Shown: positions 10,255 through 26,475, numbered from the stretch's first letter. The stretch is DNA of 64,000 bases from Anaerolineae bacterium (GCA_026645815.1 JAPKMR010000007.1:25317-89316); one strand, 5' to 3'. Numbers and translations are program-made. Notes: generated from the sequence alone by a model not told the origin.

Positions 10255-11490
10255 TTACTCGTACCTCAGCGCGTCAATAGGATTGAGCGCTGCCGCGCGT
10301 TGCGCGGGATAGATGCCGAAGAACAGTCCCACAGCGGCAGAGAACAAAGTCGCCAGCAAGACTGACCCCGCTGTGATCACTGCGTTGAAGCCCTGATCGC
10401 GCAGCAAACTGGATATGACCAAAGCCCCTGCTGCGCCAAGGGTGATTCCCAATGCGCCGCCTGCCGTTGAGAGCAAAATCGCTTCAATCAAGAATTGCCA
10501 GAGGATGTCCCTTCGCCGAGCGCCTACAGCTTTGCGCAACCCGATTTCTCTTGTGCGTTCGGTGACAGAAACAAGCATAATGTTCATGATACCGATTCCC
10601 CCGACCAGCAGGCTTATTCCAGCTATCGCTCCCAGGAAAACCGTGAGCACACTTGTGATTTGCTGGAATGTTCCAATGAGATCCGATTGGCTGATTGCGG
10701 AGAAGTCGTCAGGTTCACCCGGCAGGATGTTATGACGTTGTCGCAGGATGGCAGAGACCTCTGTGATTGCGGCATTCATCCGCTCCCCGCTGACCGCTTG
10801 TACGTAGATCATGGCAAGCCTGGGCTCGCCTTGGGGTGTGCGACGCGGGAAGAGCCGGTTTGTGGCTGTGTTTAGGGGGATAAAGGCAACATCATCCTCA
10901 CTCCCGAACTGTCCCCCACCACGCTCTGTCATCACACCAATGACACGAAAGGGCACATTGTTGACGCGTACCAGTTCTCCGGTAGGGTCGGGTGTATCAG
11001 GGAATAGCACATCGGCAACGATTTTTCCAAGGACAATGACCCGTGCTTCGGTTTGCTCCTCGAGCGAAGTAATGAAAGTTCCGACCGCAGGATACCATTC
11101 GCGGACATCCGCATATTCTGCCGTGACGCCTTGTACTTGTGTGGTTTTATCACGTCCGGGGATGGTGAGTTGCCCATCCCCGCGTGTCATTGGCGCGACG
11201 CGCAACACGTCGGGCGCCAGGAAGGGGTCTCTCAGGGCTTCGGCGTCTTTGAGTGTCAGATAAGCAGGACGGCTGAGTTCCTCACGTAGAGAACCGGGGA
11301 TTAAGAAGAAGATATTGGCTCCAATTGACTGAAACTGTGCTGTTATGTAGGATTGAACACCTTCTCCCACTGAAAGTAGTGTGATCACAGCTCCCACACC
11401 GATGATAATTCCCAACATGGTCAAGGCGGCGCGGAGTTTGTTCGTTGCCAATGCTCGCAAGGCTAACCGCAGGCTCTCCAGCAATCTCAT
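10255..11490 (-). CDS. MacB/FtsX-family ABC transporter permease
   Basis: LTMLGIIIGVGAVI, GGIGIMNIMLVSVTERTREIGLRKAVGA, LNPIDALRYE. Confidence 0.93.
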   Translation of the reverse strand: MRLLESLRLALRALATNKLRAALTMLGIIIGVGAVITLLSVGEGVQSYITAQFQSIGANIFFLIPGSLREELSRPAYLTLKDAEALRDPFLAPDVLRVAPMTRGDGQLTIPGRDKTTQVQGVTAEYADVREWYPAVGTFITSLEEQTEARVIVLGKIVADVLFPDTPDPTGELVRVNNVPFRVIGVMTERGGGQFGSEDDVAFIPLNTATNRLFPRRTPQGEPRLAMIYVQAVSGERMNAAITEVSAILRQRHNILPGEPDDFSAISQSDLIGTFQQITSVLTVFLGAIAGISLLVGGIGIMNIMLVSVTERTREIGLRKAVGARRRDILWQFLIEAILLSTAGGALGITLGAAGALVISSLLRDQGFNAVITAGSVLLATLFSAAVGLFFGIYPAQRAAALNPIDALRYE

Positions 11491-12248
11491 TGCTGAGCCT
11501 CCTGTAATGTGCCCGCATCATCCTGCTCGACTATGGTAGCGTCTATGGGATCCTTGACATTCTCTTCTTTGGAGACGACACCATCAAAGATATGCAGAAT
11601 CCGATTTGCATAGCGACCAATATTCGCGTCATGCGTGACCAGGATAACGGTAATACCCTGTTCACGGTTAAGGCGCTGCAGGATCGCCATCACTTCTCTG
11701 CCTGAACGACTGTCGAGATTGCCGGTGGGTTCGTCGGCGAGGATGATTGAGGGGTTATTCACCAGCGCACGTGCGATTGCCACGCGTTGTTGTTGCCCCC
11801 CAGAAAGCTCATTGGGCAGATGGTGCATGCGTTCACCTAATCCCACCGCACGTAGCACCTCCTCTGCGCGCTGGCGCCGCATTCTTTGACTGGCGCCAGC
11901 GTAAATAAGCGGGAGCTGCACATTTTCAAGTGCCGAGGTGCGCGCCAGCAAGTTAAAACTCTGGAATACAAACCCAACCCGCTGATTGCGCACTGCCGCC
12001 AGCGCGTCATCCTGCATATTGCTGACATCGGCTCCATCAAGATAATACTTGCCTGAGGTCGGTTGATCCAGGCATCCCAGAATATTCATCAGGGTGGATT
12101 TTCCAGAACCGGAGGGTCCCATGATTGCCACAGCTTCGCCGCGTCGGATGGTCATGTTGACACCGCGTAGGGCGTGTACTTCCTGAGTGCCCATCTGGTA
12201 TATTTTCCGCAAATCACTTACAGTGATGACAGCATTATCCATGTGCAC
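11487..12248 (-). CDS. MacB/LolD-type ABC transporter ATP-binding protein
   Basis: GPSGSGKST, LSGGQQQRVAIARAL, ILADEPTGNLD. Confidence 0.95.
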   Translation of the reverse strand: MHMDNAVITVSDLRKIYQMGTQEVHALRGVNMTIRRGEAVAIMGPSGSGKSTLMNILGCLDQPTSGKYYLDGADVSNMQDDALAAVRNQRVGFVFQSFNLLARTSALENVQLPLIYAGASQRMRRQRAEEVLRAVGLGERMHHLPNELSGGQQQRVAIARALVNNPSIILADEPTGNLDSRSGREVMAILQRLNREQGITVILVTHDANIGRYANRILHIFDGVVSKEENVKDPIDATIVEQDDAGTLQEAQQ

Positions 12249-12254
12249 TCTCCA

Positions 12255-13673
12255 TTAGCGCATTCCGGATGGTGGACCGGTCAATTCGAGGAGATTGAGC
12301 CGTTCTTCAGTCACCAGCGCTACTATGGCCCCCGCGTCCAGACCTTCGAGAACCTGTGTGAAGCTCTCGTTACGTTCGCCAAGTGTGATGACAACGCGCT
12401 GTGGTTGCTGTTCACCATCAACGCAATAGCAATATGTGAAAAGTTCCCGACTTGTAGGATCGGTACGAATGGCCCAGTTAGGGATCAAGACCACATCCTG
12501 GAGTTGGCGGGTACGAATCAGAATGCTGGCAGTCATGCCGTCGCGGATGGCAACACTCTCGTTCGGAGCGATGCGCACACGTACGGGATAGGCGATTACG
12601 CCGGCAATATTGGTGGCAAGGGGGGCAATCCTTACTACTTCACCATCGAGCGTTACGTCGGCATAGGCATCAAGCGTGATAGTGGCTTGCTGACCGAGCT
12701 GGATTTTGCCGATGTCTGTCTCGTCCACGGTCACATCTACGAAGAAGACACTGTCATCAATAAGCGTAATCGCTGCCGCAGTTGTGGGCGCCGCGACGCC
12801 AGAAAGCAGGTTCACGGCGGCGACTATGCCGTCAAAAGGTGACTTGAGCGAAGCTGCTTCTAAATCCTCTTGGGCTTGTGTCAATGCCAGCTGGGCGATC
12901 TTGATGTCTAGATCGCTACTTTCAAGGTTGTTTTCACTTGGCCCTTCTTCTAATTGCACAAGGTTGTCTTGCGCTTCCTGGTAGGCATTCCATGCCTGAG
13001 TAACTTCAGTCTGCACGCGAGTGCGTTCCACGTCGGCTTGCTGTTGCAGGCGTGTCCAGGCCCAATAGGCATTATCAGCAGCTTCGCGTGCGCGGTCGCG
13101 CGTCCAATCGCTGGTCTTGCCTTCTTCAAATTCCATTTGGCGCATTCCAAATTGTGTCTGCAGGTGCCTAAAGCGTTCTTCGGCGCTGGTCAGGTCTTCA
13201 TTGAGCAGGCTGCTGCTCATCACACGCGTATAATTCAGCCGCGCAATATTCAAAGTAGATGCAGTCTGGCTAATGGCATTGCGTGCCCGGCGCAGATCCT
13301 CTTCACTAACGGGTTCGGTCAGTTGCTTTTTCCGAAGTTCCGCTTGTTCCAGCGTGATGCTGCTTCGCTCGACGGCTCGTTGCAGTGTTGTAGTATCCAG
13401 TTGTGCCAGAGTCTCACCTTCAGAAACATGATCCCCGACGGCGACATGGAGGCTTTCGACTGTACCTGGCACGGTGAAGCGCAGGTCCACCCGTTGATTA
13501 GCGACAACGTTGCCACTTACTGCTACGGTTATGTCCAAATCACCACGTATAGTTTCACCTGTGCGCAGCACCTCGAGTCTGGTACGTGGTTCTTGCCGGC
13601 GATACCACAAATATCCTCCAATGGCAGCTATGAGTAATGCCACAATAAGTAGCCAGCCCCAGATTTTCTTCAT
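12255..13673 (-). CDS. MacA-like efflux adaptor (membrane fusion) protein
   Basis: N-terminal TM, lipoyl-like halves (VAVGDHVSEG...LKSPFDGIV), long coiled coil, VDETDIGKI. Confidence 0.88.
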   Translation of the reverse strand: MKKIWGWLLIVALLIAAIGGYLWYRRQEPRTRLEVLRTGETIRGDLDITVAVSGNVVANQRVDLRFTVPGTVESLHVAVGDHVSEGETLAQLDTTTLQRAVERSSITLEQAELRKKQLTEPVSEEDLRRARNAISQTASTLNIARLNYTRVMSSSLLNEDLTSAEERFRHLQTQFGMRQMEFEEGKTSDWTRDRAREAADNAYWAWTRLQQQADVERTRVQTEVTQAWNAYQEAQDNLVQLEEGPSENNLESSDLDIKIAQLALTQAQEDLEAASLKSPFDGIVAAVNLLSGVAAPTTAAAITLIDDSVFFVDVTVDETDIGKIQLGQQATITLDAYADVTLDGEVVRIAPLATNIAGVIAYPVRVRIAPNESVAIRDGMTASILIRTRQLQDVVLIPNWAIRTDPTSRELFTYCYCVDGEQQPQRVVITLGERNESFTQVLEGLDAGAIVALVTEERLNLLELTGPPSGMR

Positions 13674-13742
13674 ATTACACCTCCGTTATTTGTAGCCGCG
13701 ATTCTACTGTGCCGCAGCATATGTGCATGTTTCTCATACCAT

Positions 13743-13781
13743 AAAAACCCTCCCTCTCCAGGCGTGAGGAGAAGGAGGGTT
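13743..13781 (-). terminator. Probable terminator downstream of mreB
   Basis: AACCCTCC..TCTCC / GGAGA..GGAGGGTT stem with an A-run on the + strand (U-tract on the - strand). Confidence 0.6.
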
Positions 13782-13795
13782 ATATCGTGTTTTAC

Positions 13796-14806
13796 CTACA
13801 TCTCCGATAGTGTTCGTTGAAGGACGGGGATGAGCGCCAGGGCTTTTCCTGCGCCGATGGCAACGCATGCCATGGGTGCATCTGCGACATATACGGGCAC
13901 GCCGGTCTCTTGCGTTAGCAACTGGTCTATGTTGCGTAGCAACGCGCCGCCGCCAATCATCGTCATGCCTCGATCAATGATATCGGACGCCAGCTCAGGC
14001 GGGGTGCGTTCCAGCACACCTTTCACCATGCCGATAATGATCCCCAGGGATTCTTCGAGCGCTTCGACGATGTCATCGGTGTTGATGCTGACACTGCGTG
14101 GCAGACCGGTGACCTGATCACGCCCTTGCACTTCCATGCGCAGCGGATCACCTTCGAGGGGGAGTGCGGCTCCAATGCGGATTTTTGCTTCTTCAGCGGT
14201 GGGCATGCCGATCATGAGGTTATATTTGCGGCGAATAAAGGCGGCGATAGCTTCGTCCATGCGCACACCGCCAACACGCACTGCCGAGGATGTGACGACG
14301 CCGTAGACTGATAGCACAGCTGCTTCGCTCGCGCCCCCGCCGAGATCAATGATCATGTGCCCACCTGGAGTGTGAATGGGCAACCCGGCGCCAATAGCGC
14401 CTGCCAGTGGTTCGGGGATCGCATAAGCACGTCCAGCACCGGCTTCGAAGGCGGCATCTTTGACGGCTTTGCGTTCCACCTGTGTCACACCAAATGGAAC
14501 CGTGATCATCAATCGAGGCTTAAACAACCGATGCTGTCCTATGGCGCGCTGGAGGAAGGTTTGAATCATTTCTTTGGTGACGCGGTAATCGGCGATGACG
14601 CCGTCGCGCAGCGGACGGCGAACCTGAAGGGTCTCGGGTGCGCGCCCTAACATGGCTCGCGCTTCCTCTCCAACTGCAATCACACGTCCTGTGTTTATTT
14701 CCTGGGCAACGACCGAGGGTTCTTGCAGAACAATGCCTCGTCCACGTACGTAGACGAGGACATTTACGGTTCCAAGGTCAATTCCCACTTCAGCTACAAG
14801 CGCCAT
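13796..14806 (-). CDS. mreB: Rod shape-determining actin homolog MreB/Mbl
   Basis: [33 protein letters not shown]. Confidence 0.93.
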
Positions 14807-14922: not shown

Positions 14923-17058
<2,136 letters not shown>

Positions 17059-17059
<1 letters not shown>

Positions 17060-17328
17060 TGATCAAGAAGCATGGTTGGACACGAGAGCTGGCTCAGGAG
17101 GGCATGCGTGCGATGTCGCTGGGCTGGGAGCTGGCAATGCCCATATTTGGCGGCGTGTTGTTGGGCTATTACCTGGATCGCTGGCTTGATACCGGTCATA
17201 ATTTCACGATTGGATTGTTAGTGGCGGGTATAGGTATGGGTTTCTACAATATCTGGCGTTTCGGGCAGCGGTTTGCGGAGAAGACTCACCGCTCTGCCGA
17301 TACTGATGTACATGAGAGCAAAAAATGA
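17059..17328 (+). CDS. atpQ: AtpQ (AtpZ/AtpI-family) membrane subunit
   Basis: LGWELAMPIFGGVLLGYYLDRW, two TMs; N-ATPase gene order. Confidence 0.8.
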
Positions 17329-17642
17329 AAGCCATACTTGATGCTATTATGTGGTGGAGTATTGGCGTGTTCTTGGCTTGGGTAATGCTTCGTAGCCAGG
17401 TTGCGACGGTTTCTCGAATGCGGGTCACTGCAAGGTGGAGTTTTGTCTGGAGCTTGGGAGTGGGTTTGTTGTTTCGCCTACTCTTTGCGGCATTAGTGTT
17501 GCTGGGGGCTGCGCGTGCGGGCTTAGTGCCACTGCTCTGGGTGTTGGGGGGCTTCTGGTCTGCGCGTATGGTGTTAATCGTTCAACTGCACCGGGGGCGG
17601 ATATTCCGCAGATATTTGTGGCGGGAAGCTGATACGGGTTAG
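17325..17642 (+). CDS. atpR: AtpR, N-ATPase-specific membrane subunit
   Basis: Small hydrophobic protein with intramembrane Arg (LLFRLL, GFWSAR) between atpQ and atpB. Confidence 0.7.
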   Translation: MKAILDAIMWWSIGVFLAWVMLRSQVATVSRMRVTARWSFVWSLGVGLLFRLLFAALVLLGAARAGLVPLLWVLGGFWSARMVLIVQLHRGRIFRRYLWREADTG

Positions 17643-17651
17643 GAGGCTAGA

Positions 17652-18308
17652 ATGAATGTTGCGCCCCATGCCGCTATTACGCTTTTTGGCGGGCGGCTTG
17701 TGATAACCAATACGGTGACCTCTACATGGGCCATGATAGCTGTCATTATGGGGGTGTCTTGGTATCTTTACCGGCGCTATCCCATGGCTTTGGAGATGCT
17801 GATAGATTTCCTCACCGATTTGGTTGCGGACGTGGTTGGTGCAGATACAGCACATCTTTACATGCCTTTCTTGGGGGCATTGGCCATTTTTATCGCTTTT
17901 GCCAACCTCATTGGTGTAGTACCTGGTTTTGTCTCACCAACGCGCGACGTGAATACCCCGGCGGCATTGGCAATCCTCGTCTTTTTCGCGGTGCATTACT
18001 TTGGTATCAACGCGAAGGGCTGGCTACAATATCTCAAGGATTTAGCATCTCCGTTATATTTGCTACCCCTGACATTGCCCCTGGAGTTAATCGGGCAGTT
18101 CAGCCGAACTCTCTCACTGACATTAAGGCTCTTTGGAAATGTGCTTAGTGGAGAGATGGTGGTTGCCGTCATTTTTTCCCTGGTACAACCTTTGTTGCAA
18201 CTGCCGCTAGTAGGGTTGAGTTTGTTTACAGGTTTGCTTCAGGCATATATCTTCACTGTTTTGGCGGTGGTTTATATTGGTGCTGGTATCGCCGCCAGCG
18301 ATTCTTGA
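17652..18308 (+). CDS. atpB: ATPase Fo subunit a
   Basis: SPTRDVNT, SRTLSLTLRLFGN (essential Arg), LLQAYIF. Confidence 0.93.
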   Translation: MNVAPHAAITLFGGRLVITNTVTSTWAMIAVIMGVSWYLYRRYPMALEMLIDFLTDLVADVVGADTAHLYMPFLGALAIFIAFANLIGVVPGFVSPTRDVNTPAALAILVFFAVHYFGINAKGWLQYLKDLASPLYLLPLTLPLELIGQFSRTLSLTLRLFGNVLSGEMVVAVIFSLVQPLLQLPLVGLSLFTGLLQAYIFTVLAVVYIGAGIAASDS

Positions 18309-18688: not shown

Positions 18689-19477
18689 ATGGACTTTCTT
18701 AAACCAAACTTGCAAACAGTCTTGTTTCAGATTTTCAACTTTCTGGTGTTGGCGTGGTTGCTAAACAGGTTCGTCTTCAAACGCACCATGAGCAATGTCA
18801 AGCAACGGGCGGCGGAGAAAGCTGCGCTCATGCACCAATTGGAGGTGGAGCAGCAGGCTGCTGTGACTGCCAGGGAAGATTTAGAATCTCAGTTACGCGG
18901 CATTGAATCTGAGCGACTTGCCGTGCAGACACAGGCTCGTGAAGAATCTGAATCTGAACGCCTGGCGCTGTTGCGTGCAACTCAGTCGGAAGTAGAGCAA
19001 GTGCTTGTTGAGGCGCACTCCGATGCTTATCGCATTCGAAAGCAGGCAATGGAGGAGTTCCATGAAGAACTCCTCCACACGATTCTACACATTAGTGGTT
19101 CCGTTATCTCGCAATTAGCCACCGATGAAATGCAATCCCAGCTGGTCAAACAGCTGACTGACCGTATCTGGGAAATGGGGCGCAGCGAGATGTCTCAGGT
19201 TGAGAACTTCCGGCGTTCTCTGGGCGAGAGAACGCCAACAGCCTATGTGACTACCGCTCGCTCCTTGACCCCGGACTTGCAGGGGTTGTTGGCGCGCACG
19301 TTTGCCGCCCTGGCTGACCGCAATGTGAATCTTGAAATCAAGGTGGACCCTGCACTTTCACTGGGGCTTCAAGTGCGGTTGGGTGATGTGATTGTGGATA
19401 ACTCAATTGCAACACAGTTGGACGCCCTTCGTGAAGGGGTGACTCAAGCTTTGCGGGAGTATGTAGTTGATGAGTGA
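18689..19477 (+). CDS. atpF: ATPase subunit b with fused delta-like C-terminal domain (N-ATPase type)
   Basis: FQIFNFLVLAWLLNRF, long coiled coil, C-terminal VDPALSLG...VIVDNSI. Confidence 0.88.
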   Translation: MDFLKPNLQTVLFQIFNFLVLAWLLNRFVFKRTMSNVKQRAAEKAALMHQLEVEQQAAVTAREDLESQLRGIESERLAVQTQAREESESERLALLRATQSEVEQVLVEAHSDAYRIRKQAMEEFHEELLHTILHISGSVISQLATDEMQSQLVKQLTDRIWEMGRSEMSQVENFRRSLGERTPTAYVTTARSLTPDLQGLLARTFAALADRNVNLEIKVDPALSLGLQVRLGDVIVDNSIATQLDALREGVTQALREYVVDE

Positions 19478-21158
19478 CCGTCCTCTCACCTCAAAGGACA
19501 CCGGATTGTTGCTGCAGGCACTGAGAGAGCAGATGGGTACACAGGCTCCTGAGGCGCTGTCCCGTGGATTTAACCCGGATATGGTTCGCAGTATCAGTCG
19601 AAGTATTATGGACCTTCCCGTACTGCCCCATGAGAAGGTGAATTTAGCGCCGCTGTTGACATTGCTACAATCTACCGTTGCTGACAGCAAATTGGGGCGT
19701 GTTAGCTTTCGTGCGGTGGGTACTGTACAGCATATCGGCAACGGTGTGGCGACGCTCTCTGGTTTGCCCAGTGCACGAACTGATGAACTGGTCAACTTTC
19801 CGACGGGAGTGCAAGGGCTGATTCTAAATCTGGACCATGATCATGTAGATGTGATACTCTTGGGATCGGACAGTGGTATTGTTGGTGGAGACCTGGTTAC
19901 AGCAAGCGGCAATCGCTTGCGGGTACCTGTAGGAGTGGGTCTTTTAGGGCGAATTGTCAACCCCTTGGGGCAGCCTTTGGATCAGCGTGGGATTCTGGAT
20001 GTTGCCGAATACCGCTATCTTGAGCAACGTGCGCCTGGAATCGTGGAACGTGCGCCAATCTCCCAACCTTTGCAGACCGGGTTGAAGGTATTGGATGCCC
20101 TGGTGCCTATTGGCCGCGGGCAGCGGGAATTGATTGTGGGCGACCGCCAGACTGGCAAGACCTCAATCGCTGTAGATGCCATACTCAATCAAATCGCTGA
20201 TAGTAGCATCAGCTGTGTCTATGTCGCCATCGCACAGAAAAAATCCTCAACTTTGGAGGTCATTGAGTACCTCGCCCGTTCTGGAGCTTTGGCTTATACC
20301 ACCGTGGTCATGTCCAGTCCCGATGACCCGCCCGCATTGCGTTATTTGGCGCCTTATGCCGGTTGCACTATGGCCGAAGGGTTGATGCACAGTGGGCGTG
20401 ATGTCCTTATCATCTACGATGACCTCACGAAACATGCGGACGCCTATCGTGAGCTCAGTCTCCTTTTGCGCCGTCCGCCCGGGAGAGAAGCTTATCCCGG
20501 CGATATTTTCTATCTGCATTCGCGGTTGCTAGAACGCGCTTGCCGTTTAAGTGAGGAGATGGGCGGGGGATCTTTGACAGCATTACCCATAGTGGAGACG
20601 CAGCGCGGCAATCTCGCTGGCTACATTCCTACGAATTTGATCTCTATCACCGATGGTCAGATTGTTTTGGATGTTGAGCTCTTCAATCGAGGAATCAAAC
20701 CCGCTGTGAATGCAGGACGTTCGGTATCGCGAGTGGGGGGGGCGGCGCAGACAAAAGCGATGCGCAAGCTGTCGGGACCCCTGCGGTTGGAACTTTCGCA
20801 ATATGAAGAAGTTGCTCGTTTTGCGCGCATTGGTGCAGAGGTTGATGAAACTACCCGGCGTCAGATTCGCCGGGGCCAGCGTCTGCAACTTGCATTGACC
20901 CAGGCGGCCCATGAGCCGCTCTCGCTGGTGGAGCAAGTGATTGTATTGCTTGCGGCTACTGAAGGTTTTTTCGATGAGGTGCCTCTAGAAGATATGGTCG
21001 TTTTTGAGAAGGAGCTATTGTCTCGGATCAAGGCGGATCACCCGATTATGACCGCGCAAGTCAATCGAACAGGCGACCTGACTGATGAAACCCGTGTTGC
21101 ATTTCTTGACTCAATCAAATCGTTTGTTGCCCAGTGGGCTAAATCACATGCTATCTGA
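19470..21158 (+). CDS. atpA: N-type ATPase alpha subunit (with N-terminal extension)
   Basis: GRGQRELIVGDRQTGKT, RRPPGREAYPGD, TNLISITDGQ. Confidence 0.96.
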   Translation: MSDRPLTSKDTGLLLQALREQMGTQAPEALSRGFNPDMVRSISRSIMDLPVLPHEKVNLAPLLTLLQSTVADSKLGRVSFRAVGTVQHIGNGVATLSGLPSARTDELVNFPTGVQGLILNLDHDHVDVILLGSDSGIVGGDLVTASGNRLRVPVGVGLLGRIVNPLGQPLDQRGILDVAEYRYLEQRAPGIVERAPISQPLQTGLKVLDALVPIGRGQRELIVGDRQTGKTSIAVDAILNQIADSSISCVYVAIAQKKSSTLEVIEYLARSGALAYTTVVMSSPDDPPALRYLAPYAGCTMAEGLMHSGRDVLIIYDDLTKHADAYRELSLLLRRPPGREAYPGDIFYLHSRLLERACRLSEEMGGGSLTALPIVETQRGNLAGYIPTNLISITDGQIVLDVELFNRGIKPAVNAGRSVSRVGGAAQTKAMRKLSGPLRLELSQYEEVARFARIGAEVDETTRRQIRRGQRLQLALTQAAHEPLSLVEQVIVLLAATEGFFDEVPLEDMVVFEKELLSRIKADHPIMTAQVNRTGDLTDETRVAFLDSIKSFVAQWAKSHAI

Positions 21159-21197
21159 GCTCTTGCGCTTTTGGGTTCTAGAAAGGAATGACATGGC

Positions 21198-21518
21198 ATG
21201 AAGATGATCATGGCTATTGTCCCGCGTGATCAGACAGATCATCTTTTGGAGTGTCTGATCGCTGCTGGATTTACGGCTACATTTACTGAGGGGCGTGGGG
21301 GGGTTTTGCGTCAGGCAGAGCACATGCTTTTTATTGCAGTTCCCCCAGAGGCAGTTGACACTGTACTGGAGATTATTCGTCGTAATTGCCGTTCCCCTGT
21401 GGGCGTTGAATCCAATCTTGAGCGGAATTTCAGGGCTTTGGGTGTGCAGCCTGCCGCAACTGAAGTGGGTTGGGCGATGACCTTTGTGTGGGACCTTGAG
21501 CGTGTTGAGAATTACTGA
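21198..21518 (+). CDS. PII-like protein of the DarA/PstA (cyclic di-AMP receptor, DUF970) family
   Basis: MKMIMAIV start, GF.AT...GG.L, NCR, EVG.A..FVWD.E pattern and a 106-aa length match DarA/PstA. Confidence 0.8.
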   Translation: MKMIMAIVPRDQTDHLLECLIAAGFTATFTEGRGGVLRQAEHMLFIAVPPEAVDTVLEIIRRNCRSPVGVESNLERNFRALGVQPAATEVGWAMTFVWDLERVENY

Positions 21519-21526
21519 GGTTATCG

Positions 21527-22450
21527 GTGGCTGATGCTGAGCAGCTTCGGGGACGATTGGCGAATATTCGCACCGTACAACCTGTACTTCGGGCTCTGCG
21601 CACTATCTCTTTGGGGAGTTGGCAGGCAGCCCTCAACCGGCGGGGTGGGTTACAGCGTTATGTAACCCAGCTGCAGACCTTAATTCCGCCAACTGTAGCC
21701 GCTATGGTTGAGCGCCAGTCGCCGGGGCGCTCTCGATTTTTCACCAGGCCAACGGAACCTATATCTGATGCCTCTGCCCTGGAACAGTTAACTGTGTTGG
21801 CGATTGGAACCGAACGCGGATTGTGTGGCCGTTTTAATCAGGCCGTGCTTGCTGAGGTGCTTGCCTGTTTGCAAAAACAAAGGGAAGCTGGTGTGGCAGT
21901 CAATCTGATCGTGCTAGGTTCCAGACTTGCCAGATTGCTTTCGAGAAATGGTGTGAAACCTGACCGAACGATCGCATTATCTACGTCTGCTTTGCCCTCC
22001 TTCTCCGACATTTCCGTTCTAACGCGCGATTGGCTTGATCGCTATGAGGCGTATACGCTGGATGCTGTAGACGTTATCTTCAACGCTTATCGTGGGTTGG
22101 GACGTTATGAGACTACCACACGGCGTATCATCCCTCCAGAAATCGCGCCCGTAAGCCCGACGTCTAGCTCTCTCGTGGATTCGGTGCTCAATCCGTATAT
22201 TGTTGAGACTGACCCGTGGTCGCTTTATGCTCGCGTGATAGAGCAAGAGACGATGGTCCGTTGTTATAGTCTATTGCTAGAATCTGCCACGGCTGAGCAT
22301 TCTACACGCTATCAACTTATGGAGGGGGCGACACAGAATGCGGAGCGGCTACAGGAAGAATTGACGCTTGAATTGCAGGCATTGCGCCGGCAGGCGATCA
22401 CCCGTGAGATGCAGGAATTGGCAGTGGGCGCGGGTTTGTTGCAGCGCTAG
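21527..22450 (+). CDS. atpG: N-type ATPase gamma subunit
   Basis: GTERGLCGRFN, EHSTRYQLMEGATQNA, RRQAITREMQEL. Confidence 0.92.
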   Translation: MADAEQLRGRLANIRTVQPVLRALRTISLGSWQAALNRRGGLQRYVTQLQTLIPPTVAAMVERQSPGRSRFFTRPTEPISDASALEQLTVLAIGTERGLCGRFNQAVLAEVLACLQKQREAGVAVNLIVLGSRLARLLSRNGVKPDRTIALSTSALPSFSDISVLTRDWLDRYEAYTLDAVDVIFNAYRGLGRYETTTRRIIPPEIAPVSPTSSSLVDSVLNPYIVETDPWSLYARVIEQETMVRCYSLLLESATAEHSTRYQLMEGATQNAERLQEELTLELQALRRQAITREMQELAVGAGLLQR

Positions 22451-22521: not shown

Positions 22522-23499
22522 CTATGCGGGCCAGATTTTTCGACCGCCCCCGATGGGGACGATAGCATCAATGGTTGCCAGTTCTGCTGCGCCCAATGGC
22601 GGCAGCAGCCCGGCGCGCAGGTTAGCTTCCATTTGTGCCACATTTTTGATGCCGGGAATCACTGTGGTCACCGCAGGATGCGCCAGCGTGAATTGAAGCG
22701 CCAGCTCCGCCAGCGTACGTTCTTGCGCTAACGGGCGCAGGGCTTCCACTTTCCCTAAGTCGTCCAGGAACGTTTGGTATTCCTCAGGGTTTTCATGCCA
22801 GCGTGCGCGGAAATCTCCCGCACCAAAACGCGTGTGAGAGGTGAATTTGCCGGTGAGGATTCCCATAGCAAGCGCGCCTCGCACAATCACGCCGATATCG
22901 TGCGTCTGGCAATAGGGCAGGATGTCTTTTTCAGAAGTGCGATTGAGGATACTGTAATCAATTTGGAGTGTAGCGCAGTTGCCATCGGCAGCGAAGGCTT
23001 GCAGATACTCGTAGTCGCTTGTGCTCACGCCGTAGGCGCGCACTTTGCCATCCTGTTGTAGGCGGTAAAAGCCTTCCAGGAAGATTTCCATTGTGGGATC
23101 GCGAAAATCAATGTGGCTCTGGATGATGTCCACGTAGTCTGTATTGAGGCGGCGCAGGTTACTCTCGACCCCTGCGATGAGGCTATCAACTGTGGTGTAG
23201 GCGCTTTGCCCTCGTTCTCCATCAAAGCCAATCCAACCGATCTTCGTGGCCACAATGAATTTCTCTCTGCGTCCTTGCATGGCTCGTCCGAGCAATATCT
23301 CACTGTGCCCATTACCGTATACATCAGCAGTATCGAAAAAGTTGATTTTGGCTTCGAGGGCATAATCTACAGCAGCTAGTATTTGAGCATCATCTGTGGG
23401 ACCCCACTCACTACCGCCAGCTGCCCATAGCCCCATGCCGACCTCGCTCACGAACAGGTCGCTTTTTCCAAGGCGACGGTATTTCAATTCACTCAACAT
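22522..23499 (-). CDS. Aldo/keto reductase
   Basis: YRRLGKS, FFDTADVYGNGHSE, VATK, LRRLNTDYVD, VIPG; ATG at 23499 overlaps the murI end. Confidence 0.92.
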   Translation of the reverse strand: MLSELKYRRLGKSDLFVSEVGMGLWAAGGSEWGPTDDAQILAAVDYALEAKINFFDTADVYGNGHSEILLGRAMQGRREKFIVATKIGWIGFDGERGQSAYTTVDSLIAGVESNLRRLNTDYVDIIQSHIDFRDPTMEIFLEGFYRLQQDGKVRAYGVSTSDYEYLQAFAADGNCATLQIDYSILNRTSEKDILPYCQTHDIGVIVRGALAMGILTGKFTSHTRFGAGDFRARWHENPEEYQTFLDDLGKVEALRPLAQERTLAELALQFTLAHPAVTTVIPGIKNVAQMEANLRAGLLPPLGAAELATIDAIVPIGGGRKIWPA

Positions 23500-24358
23500 C
23501 GTTTTCTCCTTTGATGGTCTGAAGGTCATTTCCGCGCCAGACTACAGGTTGGATGGTTCCTTCGAAGCCAACCAACCGGTGTGCCAGACCTCTCAATACC
23601 TCGGGTGAGCCTGAGGTAAAGAAGGTGTGTTTTGTGCCAACATTTGCCGGGGCACATAAACTCTGATGTTCTAATACCCGCGCGGTTTGCCGTGCTACTG
23701 CTGGTGCTGGATCAACCAGGGTGACGTTTGGGCCAGTGATGCGGATAATGGTCTCTGCAAGAAAAGGGTAGTGTGTGCATCCCAGCACCAGATGGTCCGC
23801 GCCAGCTTGCAACAGCGGATTGAGGCATTCGCGCAGCGTTGCCTCGGTTTCTGGTGTGTCCAATTCCCCGCGCTCTACTAGATCTACCAGCCCAGGGCAA
23901 AATTGCGTTTCTAGTCGAACGCCGGTGGCAAAACGTTCCACCAAGCTGTGGAAGAGTTCGCCCTGAAAGGTGGCTTGCGTCGCAATGACGGCAATCACGC
24001 CACTTTGGGTATTTTCTGCCGCAGGTTTGACTGCCGGTTCCATGCCCACAAATGCCAGGCCCGGGAAAGAGTCGCGCAGGGTGCGGAGAGCTGCCCCGGA
24101 GGCAGTATTACACGCGACTACAATAATCTTGGCGCCTTGAGCCAGGAGAAACCGCGTAATGCCCTTTGCGTATTCGCGCACCTCCGCCAGCGAGCGTATG
24201 CCATAGGGAACGTGTCCCTGGTCGGCAACGTAGAGCGTGCTTTCGTGGGGGAGTTGTCTGGCAATCTCCCTCCACACGGAAAGCCCCCCGACACCAGAAT
24301 CGAAGATGCCGATGGGACTTTCCGGGCTGAGGTTGAAGGGTAATCTTGCTTCTGTCAT
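23489..24358 (-). CDS. murI: Glutamate racemase
   Basis: FDSGVGGLSV, VACNTAS, LGCTHYP. Confidence 0.96.
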   Translation of the reverse strand: MTEARLPFNLSPESPIGIFDSGVGGLSVWREIARQLPHESTLYVADQGHVPYGIRSLAEVREYAKGITRFLLAQGAKIIVVACNTASGAALRTLRDSFPGLAFVGMEPAVKPAAENTQSGVIAVIATQATFQGELFHSLVERFATGVRLETQFCPGLVDLVERGELDTPETEATLRECLNPLLQAGADHLVLGCTHYPFLAETIIRITGPNVTLVDPAPAVARQTARVLEHQSLCAPANVGTKHTFFTSGSPEVLRGLAHRLVGFEGTIQPVVWRGNDLQTIKGENDVE

Positions 24359-24369
24359 CCAGACGCGGT

Positions 24370-26475
24370 TTAGTCCGAGCTAGTTAGGGAGATTTGATAG
24401 GGCGCAAGTTCTGTTGTCACGGGCGCTAGTGCTGATATCGCCAAAACGACCCGATCATTTGCGCTGCTGAGTGGCAACTCCCATTGACCAGTGCTGGTAT
24501 CCCAACGCACCAGGGGTGTTACCGTAATGCCATCACGTCCAAAGGTTACTGCCTGCAGCAGCCATTCCTGGGGCAAGACATTTGCATGTCGCACGAAACC
24601 TTCGGCGATCCACTCCGAGTCCTCAGATTCCGCGTCGTCCATAAATTGCTCGACGCCATTGACCATCAGGCGGATGTCATCGAGGGCAAATCCCGATTGA
24701 TTTACTGCAGCATCGGTAATGTATTCGAAGCGTACGGCGATAGTTTTGCCCGCATAAGCGGAAAGATCAATGGCGCGTTCAACCCAACCGTTGCTTTTCC
24801 CGGTTAGACCGCATCCGTAATTATTCCCATTGGGGTTGCTGCGCGTGCAGCGCAAGCTCGGATCCTCCACCAGATGCCATTGAATTGCAGGCGAGCTCAG
24901 GTCTTCGGGAAGACTGCCATCTGCGGTGTAGCCTACCGCCACATAAGCATAATCCCATTCATCTTCAATGTGATACCAGGCCTGGAACGATAGTTCGGCG
25001 GTGCGCGCCTCACTCAGATTCAGAATCCGGGTCAATCTGGTGTCTGATTCATCTTCGCGGTTGGACCACCAGAGATACTTCCCACTGTAAGCATCGGTAT
25101 CGAGCAGCTTCACCTGCGTTGTGCCGGTAAAATTGATCACTATGGGTTGGTCGCCATTGATTTCGACATAATCTACGCCATATTGGCTGACCGTGCCGTT
25201 GATGGAAACCGGGGCGCCTCTAAAGGTCACTGTGTCGCTGGTATCAGGAGTGATAGGATTGATCTGGCTATAGCCATAACGCCCATCCTCCAATTCGGTG
25301 TCGTCCAGCAGGTTAGCTACTGTCCAATCAGCGAACAGGTCTTTGTGGTCCAGGTTTAGACCCAGATTGTCCTGCAATACCAGGTCCACGCTTTCCATGC
25401 CATTTTGGGTGTGACCGACTAACGCCTTGGTTGCTTCTTCCCCGAAACGGTCCAGGAAGTACTCCATGAACAGATAAGCGGCGCCATAGTGCGGTGAGGT
25501 GTCATCTTCCTCAGGCCACGTGGTGAGCTGTGTGTCCGGTTGCACCATATAGGCATAGTCGCTACCGCCGACATCGTAAACCCCGCTGCGCCGATACGAT
25601 CGTTCATTGAGCGCCATCGCCATTTCAGAACAACCCTCGTTGAGCCAGGTGCTCTCGTTGCGATCGCGATACCAGTGAATCATATGCTGGAATTCGTGCG
25701 CCAATACACCGTTGTAGAAAGCATCATTAACATTCACGTTCTCCAAATTGATGTAGAACATCTCCATCTGGTTGGAATCCGGGCGCACGGCTTGTACATA
25801 TTGGTCGGTGCTGGAGAAATATCCCGCGATGTTGTATCCCAAGCCATTCGCATGAAGGATATTCAGGTGGGGATCGCCGTCAATGCCAGGGTTAGGTTCG
25901 CCGCCGTAGAATTCGCGGTTGGTTGGGTAAGTATGGGTTTCGAAGAGCTCGGCAGCTTCTTCAATCTCCTTACGATTGAAACGTGCGTCTTTCTCAACCC
26001 ACATGTACACATGATCGGTTTTGTACGCCAGCACTGCGGTAATCTCGAATTGTTGTTCGGTATCGAGGTTGTGAGCATTGAAGGTGCGTTCTGTTCCCAC
26101 AGGATAATCAGGATTTGTAGTGCTGGCGACACGAGAGGTTTCCGCCGGCACCCCCAGGTATAGAACGCCAAGTTCGTGCATGTCAGAAACTGGGATCTCG
26201 CTTTCCAAAATGGCGTTCAGCGTCTCCAGCGCTTCATTGGGCAGCGGTTCCACCACGATGGGCGTTTGGGGAAGTGGTTCGGGTGTGATTCTCCCATCAA
26301 GGCCTGGTTCAAGCGTTGGCCATTCGATTTCGGGCCCATCTACCGGGTTGGTGCTGCCTTCTAGTGTTGCCCACCACAATACGCCACCAACACAACAGCA
26401 ACACGTGCATAGCAGTACCAGAACCAATATGGCAATGATGGCATACAGCAGCCGACGGTCCTGTTTCTCGTTCAT
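24370..26475 (-). CDS. Membrane-anchored zinc metallopeptidase, immune-inhibitor-A/M30-like
   Basis: HEFQH + NEGCSE zinc motif; C-terminal InhA-type beta-sandwich (DLSAYAGK, FEYITD); N-terminal TM. Confidence 0.8.
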   Translation of the reverse strand: MNEKQDRRLLYAIIAILVLVLLCTCCCCVGGVLWWATLEGSTNPVDGPEIEWPTLEPGLDGRITPEPLPQTPIVVEPLPNEALETLNAILESEIPVSDMHELGVLYLGVPAETSRVASTTNPDYPVGTERTFNAHNLDTEQQFEITAVLAYKTDHVYMWVEKDARFNRKEIEEAAELFETHTYPTNREFYGGEPNPGIDGDPHLNILHANGLGYNIAGYFSSTDQYVQAVRPDSNQMEMFYINLENVNVNDAFYNGVLAHEFQHMIHWYRDRNESTWLNEGCSEMAMALNERSYRRSGVYDVGGSDYAYMVQPDTQLTTWPEEDDTSPHYGAAYLFMEYFLDRFGEEATKALVGHTQNGMESVDLVLQDNLGLNLDHKDLFADWTVANLLDDTELEDGRYGYSQINPITPDTSDTVTFRGAPVSINGTVSQYGVDYVEINGDQPIVINFTGTTQVKLLDTDAYSGKYLWWSNREDESDTRLTRILNLSEARTAELSFQAWYHIEDEWDYAYVAVGYTADGSLPEDLSSPAIQWHLVEDPSLRCTRSNPNGNNYGCGLTGKSNGWVERAIDLSAYAGKTIAVRFEYITDAAVNQSGFALDDIRLMVNGVEQFMDDAESEDSEWIAEGFVRHANVLPQEWLLQAVTFGRDGITVTPLVRWDTSTGQWELPLSSANDRVVLAISALAPVTTELAPYQISLTSSD

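Follow-up and report, generated by a model that had tools for sequence, protein, structure and literature searches.

A PII-like protein of the DarA/PstA family is encoded between atpA and atpG in N-ATPase-like operons of Anaerolineae

DarA and PstA are widespread receptors of cyclic di-AMP (c-di-AMP). Known control of rotary F-type ATPases is exerted by their own subunits or by small proteins that inhibit them; the bacterial inhibitors include the C-terminal domain of epsilon, the zeta subunit, AtpTheta and the mycobacterial alpha extension. To our knowledge, the folds of these inhibitors are unrelated to that of the PII-like protein, none of them belongs to the PII family, and PII-type sensors are not known as controllers of rotary F-type ATPases. 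Here we analyze a stretch of 64,000 nucleotides, called the window below, from an Anaerolineae bacterium (GCA_026645815.1, JAPKMR010000007.1:25317-89316). A gene for a PII-like protein at positions 21198 to 21518 stands between the genes atpA and atpG of an ATPase operon in this window. New here is a distinct DarA/PstA-like subfamily that is dedicated to an ATPase operon.

In PstA, the contacts to c-di-AMP are made by Thr28, the backbone amides of 34-GGFL-37, Phe36, which stacks on the second adenine, and Asn41, which forms a hydrogen bond with a ribose. Gly47, Phe99, residue 108 and Arg26 are further contacts, and a kink at 94-GGA-96 is conserved (PMC4316997, PMC4475381). Mutagenesis showed that Phe36 and Asn41 matter for binding. 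In the Listeria protein, the dissociation constant (Kd) of the F36A variant is 7 uM and that of N41A ~140 uM (PMC4475381). In PstA of S. aureus, N41A raises the Kd from 0.37 to 9.6 uM, and the GGFL-AAAA and T28A variants each fall short of saturation (PMC4316997). The long B' loop has been proposed as the effector-binding element of PstA (PMC4316997, PMC4475381). After a decade without known targets, GlnR was named as the first target of PstA in a 2026 preprint (PMC13484208).

The gene under study and its ribosome binding site have the following positions in the window.

21182..21187, + strand: Shine-Dalgarno-like AAAGGA of the PII-like gene, 10 nt ahead of the ATG
21198..21518, + strand: PII-like gene of a CdAMP_rec subfamily ('T1'), with ATG at 21198 and TGA at 21516-21518, encoding 106 aa

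The ATG follows the atpA stop (21158) after a gap of 39 bp. The stop codon is separated by 8 bp from the GTG of atpG at 21527, and the GAGG of atpG overlaps it. The preliminary description of this locus, made from the sequence alone, had claimed an open reading frame (ORF) of 106 aa with its own ribosome binding site that ends 8 bp before atpG, and this is borne out in every detail checked. In 86 aligned members of the subfamily, which share 39-80% identity with the window protein, the frame is intact, with invariant residues in 6 columns and at least 90% conservation in 18. Orthologs with 40-80% identity occur in 89 of the 145 genomes of the order, and 140 relatives were found in a species-representative collection, which shows the gene to be maintained by selection rather than a chance ORF. 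Parts of the window are contained in 13 sequencing runs, with shares of at most 0.28. Contigs with 90-99% likeness from two libraries labeled as metatranscriptomic overlap atpA, the PII-like gene and atpG in part, and one of these contigs, with a likeness of ~97%, spans 20996-21292, that is, the end of atpA and the start of the PII-like gene. Given this likeness of 90-99%, the contigs come from relatives and not from this strain; parts of the window without contig cover carry no meaning. The Rfam scan found no family anywhere in the 64-kb window, and therefore no curated riboswitch family, including the ydaO/c-di-AMP type, precedes the operon.

The protein belongs to the family of DarA and PstA, as the preliminary description had supposed. 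The hidden Markov model (HMM) check assigns it to the Pfam family PF06153 CdAMP_rec (DUF970) with 48 bits against a cut-off of 27, residues 1-103 being aligned to positions 1-106 of the 109 of the model. The canonical P-II family PF00543 reaches 23.2 bits and stays under its cut-off of 25. The window protein does not reach the NCBIfam DarA equivalog NF058593 (53.1 bits, cut-off 140). A profile built from 23 orthologs retrieves the PstA, DarA and PEPE_1480 chains over their full length at E 1e-13 to 1e-16 and reaches canonical PII proteins only at E > 0.008. The AlphaFold2 model, made from 86 sequences, has a predicted local distance difference test score (pLDDT) of 83 and shows a beta-alpha-beta-beta-alpha-beta core with two loops, a short one (residues 34-39) and a long one of low confidence (residues 66-90). 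In a Foldseek search of the PDB with this model, ranks 1-12 are taken by PstA, DarA and PEPE_1480 chains at template-modeling (TM) scores of 0.67-0.76, the top PstA and DarA matches lying at 0.70-0.76, and GlnK and GlnB come next. Members of the subfamily are labeled in public databases as 'cyclic-di-AMP receptor', 'uncharacterized protein YaaQ' or 'hypothetical protein'.

Within CdAMP_rec, the window subfamily is a separate, fast-diverged clade. In a tree of 71 family members, its 29 rows occupy one side of a branch with a Shimodaira-Hasegawa-like approximate likelihood ratio test (SH-aLRT) support of 100, and its stem measures 1.17 substitutions per site. This tree results from a quick search over 109 columns, and its deeper forks are unsettled. 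The subfamily is small: the global library contains 1,658 family representatives at E <= 0.001, of which only 19 are found at E <= 1e-30, and 41 representatives exceed 100 bits with the subfamily profile.

The gene keeps its position between atpA and atpG in some hundred related species of Chloroflexota, and the subfamily is found almost nowhere else. Matches at 77-186 bits (43-80% identity) were found in 22 genomes among 40 relatives, the next best matches reaching at most 45 bits, and all 22 high-scoring loci have the arrangement atpA-x-atpG, where x is the PII-like gene. The survey of this synteny proposed in the preliminary description thus shows that the insertion is widespread and not unique to the window genome. 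The 140 relatives in the species-representative collection were confirmed by a pattern scan, and the arrangement was counted in the best 80 of them. Their sources are nearly all Anaerolineae, Anaerolineales, 'Thermoflexales' or Chloroflexota metagenome-assembled genomes. The arrangement atpA-x-atpG is present in 70 of the 80 loci, including L084, in which two atpA copies lie upstream (atpA-atpA'-x-atpG). Three loci read atpA-x-atpA-atpG, and three stored loci begin at x, which is followed by atpG. In the remaining four (L054, L068, L081, L102) atpA precedes x and atpG was undetected; L054 ends 15 nt past x, the other three have further downstream sequence, and in their closest relatives gamma shares no more than 29-30% identity with the query. 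A whole Anaerolineae-type operon is also present in a bin labeled Methanosarcinales (L097, JAIWHF010000151.1, coverage 0.26), which is probably misbinned.

The phylum was covered by an even sample of 300 genomes, in which the unpublished genomes G325, G406 and G353 are counted in denominators only. Six other genomes in it reach at least 109 bits, all six with the atpA-x-atpG synteny, and one of them (G200) belongs to another class. No atp gene lies closer than 1.5 kb to any of the 23 loci that follow in score (76-88 bits). In the order as a whole (145 genomes), the PII-like gene was found in 89, its gamma in 90, and one or both in 92. The gap from x to atpG measures 8-238 bp in 80 of these 92 genomes. 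It is 484 bp in G574, where atpA-x-atpG was confirmed, and ~1.8 kb in G481, G489 and G492, where a second atpA is confirmed for G489 (= L059) and inferred for the other two. In G488, atpA-x-atpA' and atpA'-atpG are split across two contigs. Five genomes (G539, G568, G548, G552, G567) are undecided, with a contig starting or ending at this place. The operon of G007 is a remnant with a deletion from an atpR-like remnant to gamma residue 150. What is left there (L144, G007:C81) is atpD, atpC, atpQ and atpR-like traces fused to gamma residues 150-307, so that a, c, b, alpha, the PII-like gene and the first half of gamma were lost together. Wherever the contigs of the order allow checking, the PII-like gene sits between atpA and atpG.

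A second association between the family and an ATPase was found in the same order. Some genomes contain a paralogous operon, atpD-C-Q-B-E-F-A-G, whose long b includes the C-terminal part of delta and whose alpha is extended. This alpha shares 47-56% identity with that of the window and the gamma ~25%, and the subunits are also below the N-ATPase cut-offs. A different CdAMP_rec gene lies directly 3' of the paralogous gamma in 12 of the 145 genomes (13 loci), and gamma stands immediately before it in 12 of the 12 loci having upstream sequence. In the 71-member tree, these post-gamma copies (4 rows) form their own supported group among general Chloroflexota DarA-like proteins. The post-gamma paralog reaches 80.4 bits with the DarA equivalog, below the cut-off of 140. 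The post-gamma gene is missing from five further operons of this type, one of which, in G481, retains a 23-residue C-terminal remnant of it. Gamma is the neighbor common to both operon types, and alpha is a neighbor in all variants of the window type. The paralogous operons are found at loci L152-L155, L188-L200 and L204-L208; in G505 (L206), both operon types lie in tandem on one contig. One paralogous operon has a 120-aa ORF between atpQ and atpB (L154:3744-4106), where AtpR would be expected. A third gamma type, seemingly located after the paralogous alpha in L204-L207, was rejected, as ORF reading showed it to be an artefact of the overlap filter.

Most of the remaining CdAMP_rec genes in these genomes have no atp gene as a neighbor. 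The window genome has a tandem pair of them, one of which carries the canonical motif. Such pairs are conserved (G000:C148, L157:4633-5250; L028-L034; L156:6950-7557) and consist of a long protein of 113 aa with a partly changed motif and a short one of 87-90 aa with the canonical GGFL and Asn and without the long B' loop. Proteins of ~220 aa with two domains in the global library (e.g. P0091, P0092) look like fused tandem pairs. A tandem DarA-like pair after atpC of the canonical operon in G036 was considered as a third link to an ATPase. It was judged incidental, being found in 1 of the 5 placements checked, because the pair lies off the ATPase contigs in G028, G032 and G038 and beside unrelated genes in G000.

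The ligand pocket of the subfamily was assessed in its 86 aligned members. Thr28, Gly35 and Leu37 are present in all of them and G34 in 83, as is the equivalent of Phe99 (F96, 83/86). The GGA kink retains G91 and A93, each in 84 members; its middle residue is G in 51 and Y, S or W in the others. Position 36, which is Phe in PstA, is occupied by M (59), V (23), A (3) or I (1), and position 41, which is Asn in PstA, by Q (73), E (4) or other residues (9), so that neither Phe36 nor Asn41 occurs in any member. Arg26 is kept in a single one. Newly conserved are R10 (82/86), R33 (80/86, K in 6 more), R38 (83/86), Q39 (85/86) and W98 (86/86). General Chloroflexota members have Phe36 in 20 of 22 and Asn41 in 22 of 22 cases, and the post-gamma copies in 3 of 4 and 4 of 4, respectively. 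The inter-subunit ligand cleft is the best-conserved surface of the subfamily. Judged from these residues, the half of the PstA site that holds the first adenine is kept and the half for the second adenine is rebuilt. Since the first-adenine site is kept, the stack on the second adenine is lost, and Arg33, Arg38 and Gln39 are gained, the ligand is most likely an adenine nucleotide other than c-di-AMP, or one bound differently from it.

The preliminary description had regarded the protein as a c-di-AMP receptor. If it were a true one, the messenger of potassium and osmotic state would switch an ion-pumping ATPase through the trimer, which we consider unlikely. Part of the claim stands, as the protein is a member of CdAMP_rec, Thr28 and the Gly-Gly backbone site show little or no variation, and the GGA kink and Phe99 are kept. 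A diadenylate cyclase was looked for and is present in the genome in one copy. The post-gamma paralog keeps the canonical pocket, so an ancestral link to c-di-AMP may hold, and the Na+-type motif of the c subunit, as described in the excerpt of PMC2881411, would fit an osmotic role. However, none of the 86 members has Phe36 or Asn41 and the DarA cut-off is missed (53 vs 140 bits), so c-di-AMP is doubtful as the ligand of this copy; the equivalent PstA mutants, moreover, bind it weakly, Arg26 is nearly always absent, and the canonical motif is found in other CdAMP_rec genes of the genome.

We lean, if only slightly, towards the view that the PII-like protein is a dedicated accessory and nucleotide-sensing partner of the operon ATPase that would tune its pumping via the ligand in the cleft. 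The protein would be made from the same transcript as the F1 subunits alpha and gamma and in step with them. By homology with its relatives, it would form a trimer, which may bind F1 or the rotor. With a small ligand held in the inter-subunit cleft, the trimer would tune or block ATP-driven ion pumping. In favor of this view are the family and fold, the constant place in the operon, the separate clade, the second CdAMP_rec gene beside the paralogous operon, the close spacing to atpA and atpG with the overlap of the atpG ribosome binding site and the stop codon, the retained and newly conserved pocket residues, and the presence in the genome of a diadenylate cyclase and of separate DarA-like genes with the canonical motif.

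Several observations weigh against this view. The long B' loop is not conserved in the subfamily, having 18-41 residues and no consensus. In the operon of G482, atpA is directly followed by atpG and there is no PII-like gene; this is the only clean exception in the order. The post-gamma copy is missing from 5 of the 17 paralogous operons, and the classical N-ATPases are described without such a gene in the excerpt of PMC2881411. A search for longer relatives at E <= 1e-8 revealed no fusion with an ATPase subunit, which is weak evidence. Gene neighborhood alone is likewise weak evidence for physical binding, and the support for transcription from the RNA-library contig across the end of atpA is weak, as DNA carry-over is possible. 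The losses in G482 and in the 5 of 17 paralogous operons speak for an accessory regulator rather than an indispensable structural subunit.

The other genes of the ATPase operon in the window are as follows.

15247..16662, + strand: atpD (F1 beta), TIGR01039 with 688 bits (cut-off 463)
16646..17059, + strand: atpC (epsilon), PF02823 with 38 bits, 17-nt overlap with atpD
17059..17328, + strand: atpQ (membrane protein of the ATPase_gene1 family), PF09527 with 65.8 bits (cut-off 26.6)
17325..17642, + strand: hydrophobic 105-aa ORF at the atpR position, no significant family
17652..18308, + strand: atpB (Fo a subunit), PF00119 with 158.7 bits
18343..18657, + strand: atpE (c subunit), PF00137 with 55.4 bits
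18689..19477, + strand: atpF (long b, 262 aa, with the C-terminal part of delta only), PF00430 at residues 11-128
19467..21158, + strand: atpA (alpha, 563 aa), TIGR00962 with 651 bits (cut-off 484)
21527..22450, + strand: atpG (gamma), PF00231 with 150 bits, GTG start

The start of atpD is probably the GTG at 15247, which has GGAGG ahead of it; the open frame reaches back to 14923. The genes around the PII-like gene overlap or stand 9-39 bp apart. The resulting order, atpD-C-Q-R?-B-E-F-A-x-G, is that of atpDCQRBEFAG with one extra gene, and atpH is missing. The operon ends at atpG, because the genes downstream of it are convergent. By reading of their translations, these genes (22522-26475) would encode aldo/keto-reductase-like, glutamate-racemase-like and 701-aa peptidase-like proteins, and those upstream on the minus strand (11487-14806) an ABC ATP-binding protein, a membrane-fusion-like protein and an MreB-like protein. 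In the genome, which is 92% complete, there is a single F-type gamma and a single F-type alpha/beta pair; another contig, C167, encodes the V-type subunits A (880 bits against a cut-off of 470) and B (726 bits against 349).

The claim of the preliminary description that this is an N-ATPase operon stands for gene order and architecture. The likeness to N-ATPases, as these are described in the excerpt of PMC2881411, includes the gene order, the missing atpH, AtpQ, the long b that carries a portion of delta, the Glu that replaces the helix-1 Gln of the c subunit together with the carboxylate motif of its helix 2, and a second rotary ATPase alongside, here of the V type. In the window, the c subunit has V-E-G in helix 1 and E-S-T-x-x-Y in helix 2, and the OSCP match of b covers residues 182-249, corresponding to positions 102-170 of the 172 of the model. 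The claim does not hold for the model scores. All 'alternate F1F0' scores of NCBI are below their cut-offs: alpha 604.9 vs 750.5, beta 600.6 vs 752, gamma 62.3 vs 282, b 94.1 vs 224.7, c 78.2 vs 130.85 and epsilon 21.6 vs 100.1. For b, the best NCBIfam match is alt_F1F0_F0_B, over the full length; for alpha and beta, the ordinary F1 models give the higher scores. AtpR is not recognizable by HMM either. The 105-aa ORF at its position gives an insignificant match to AtpR PF12966 (E 0.8, 10.6 bits), in which residues 7-86 are collinear with positions 3-80 of the 86 of the model, and no match to TIGR03165; read by eye, it has three hydrophobic stretches with an Arg inside the second and the third. 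AtpR of N-ATPases is characterized by three membrane segments, two of which have an Arg. The extra gene between atpA and atpG and the N-terminal extension of alpha are further differences from N-ATPases. Since order and architecture match while the 'alternate F1F0' cut-offs are missed and the AtpR match is insignificant, the enzyme is best called N-ATPase-like. The two-carboxylate motif is characteristic of N-type c subunits (PMC2881411, PMC5376962). The motif does not reveal the ion specificity, since selectivity for H+ is described for the N-type ring of B. pseudomallei, which has two carboxylates (PMC5376962). According to the excerpt of PMC2881411, one- and two-gene insertions occur in cyanobacterial N-ATPase operons, the genes being unnamed there.

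The alpha subunit of the window has ~55 extra N-terminal residues before the beta-barrel, which starts at residue 82, and this extension is conserved in orthologs. The paralogous alpha is likewise extended; only 32 open codons precede the barrel in the alpha of the canonical operon of G036, the sole one examined, and only 19 positions in the N-ATPase alpha model. Near its start, the extension (window 19467-19710) contains a conserved P-D-V-x-x-L-L-x-x-L-R-E. In an AlphaFold2 model of alpha residues 1-150, residues 1-81 have a pLDDT below 50, and only three helices are predicted. A complex prediction with 3 copies of the PII-like protein and alpha 1-82 gave a score of 0.00 and a mark of 0.32; run without controls, it weighs neither way. 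Some ortholog alphas have as their extension a second copy of their own N-terminal helix and first strand (L040:2189-2500, 50% identity over 42 residues, E 2e-12), a duplication not detectable in the alpha of the window. In G482, alpha and the gene downstream of gamma carry Pro/Gly-rich repeat insertions of the P-P-L-S-P-P-L-G-G type (L201, G482:C78). Two operon alpha genes are found in some genomes, either as atpA-x-atpA'-atpG (L057, L059, L112; G481, G489, G492, G488) or, in L084, with both copies before x. The second alpha gene suggests a mixed alpha composition of F1.

The conserved extension of alpha, found in the paralogous operon as well, and its origin by duplication in some orthologs would also suit a ligand-independent structural or assembly factor. 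The protein would then be a threefold cap or chaperone for alpha3beta3-gamma, or a stator anchor. Its gene lies between those of alpha and gamma, and b lacks the N-terminal domain of delta (OSCP positions 102-170 only), which would fit. We regard this as improbable, since the gene was lost from one operon of the window type and, in its post-gamma form, from 5 of 17 paralogous operons, and since the ligand cleft is the best-conserved surface, which points to ligand binding. In addition, we know of no PII-family protein that acts as a chaperone.

It appears quite improbable that the protein acts on a target other than the ATPase, for example a transporter or transcription factor, and that co-expression is its sole tie to the enzyme. 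GlnR, the protein named as the first PstA target in the excerpt of PMC13484208, is a transcription factor, and most other CdAMP_rec genes of these genomes lie away from atp genes. Against such a role stand the operon position, which some hundred species have retained even where the operon was rearranged, for instance by a second alpha copy, the second subfamily that was independently kept beside a second ATPase operon, and the loss of the gene together with the middle of the operon in G007. That the gene is a functionless insertion carried along by the operon can practically be dismissed: it is absent from the classical N-ATPase operons (PMC2881411, excerpt) and dispensable in G482, but its frame is intact in 86 members with 6 invariant columns and 18 conserved at 90% or more, and it occurs in 89 of the 145 genomes of the order.

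The view of the PII-like protein as an accessory nucleotide-sensing partner of the ATPase can be extended to a more far-reaching proposal, which we put forward tentatively and on balance do not expect to hold in full. The PII-family protein would be a genuine regulatory subunit of a rotary F-type ATPase, with a trimer on F1 or the rotor that gates pumping in response to c-di-AMP in the paralogous operon and to a different adenine nucleotide here. If true, control of a rotary ATPase by a second messenger or a PII-type protein would be known for the first time, and the DarA/PstA family would gain a direct enzymatic target. Demonstrated binding would make the system new in kind for rotary ATPases. 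The two CdAMP_rec subfamilies fixed inside or at the end of N-ATPase-like operons, one with the c-di-AMP pocket kept and one with a remodeled pocket, form a testable pair. The finding also bears on the switching of N-type ATPases, whose physiology is poorly known. In the full-text literature, with subscription journals outside its coverage, we found no paper that brings DarA, c-di-AMP, PII-like proteins and ATP synthase together and nothing joining Anaerolineae, ATP synthase and c-di-AMP. Among the listed papers on DUF970, CdAMP_rec or PF06153, none about ATPases was found, as judged by title or abstract. The excerpt of the N-ATPase paper PMC4154653 does not contain 'PII' or 'additional gene' and uses 'inserted' only for cyanobacterial b subunits in E. 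coli.

The protein can be compared with three groups of described systems. With the known F-type inhibitors, the likeness lies only in the proposed role, that is, in preventing wasteful ATP hydrolysis or tuning pumping. Canonical PII proteins and their partners (GlnK-AmtB, PII-NAGK, SbtB-SbtA, PII-NrtBCD) would share with it the principle of a trimeric ferredoxin-like sensor encoded beside its transport machine. Unlike them, the window protein has no long T loop, scores under the cut-off of PF00543 and has a rotary ATPase as its candidate target, a kind of target for which our literature searches gave no report in any PII-family protein. The closest relatives are DarA (YaaQ) of B. subtilis and PstA of S. 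aureus and L. monocytogenes, which it resembles in fold, length and full-length sequence similarity, in the short T' loop with Gly-Gly, in the long B' loop ending in a GGA-like motif, and in the retained Thr28 and Phe99 equivalents. PstA itself is without the Walker-like B-loop motif of PII proteins (PMC4475381). The window subfamily differs from DarA and PstA in its separate long branch, in the replacement of Phe36, Asn41 and Arg26, and in the ATPase-operon context. Asp12 of PstA is kept in 2 of the 86 members, and Arg67 has no conserved counterpart in the profile alignment. The Y-x-P-Y-P-x-E-V motif in the B' loop of general Chloroflexota and Firmicutes members is likewise absent from the subfamily that accompanies this ATPase.

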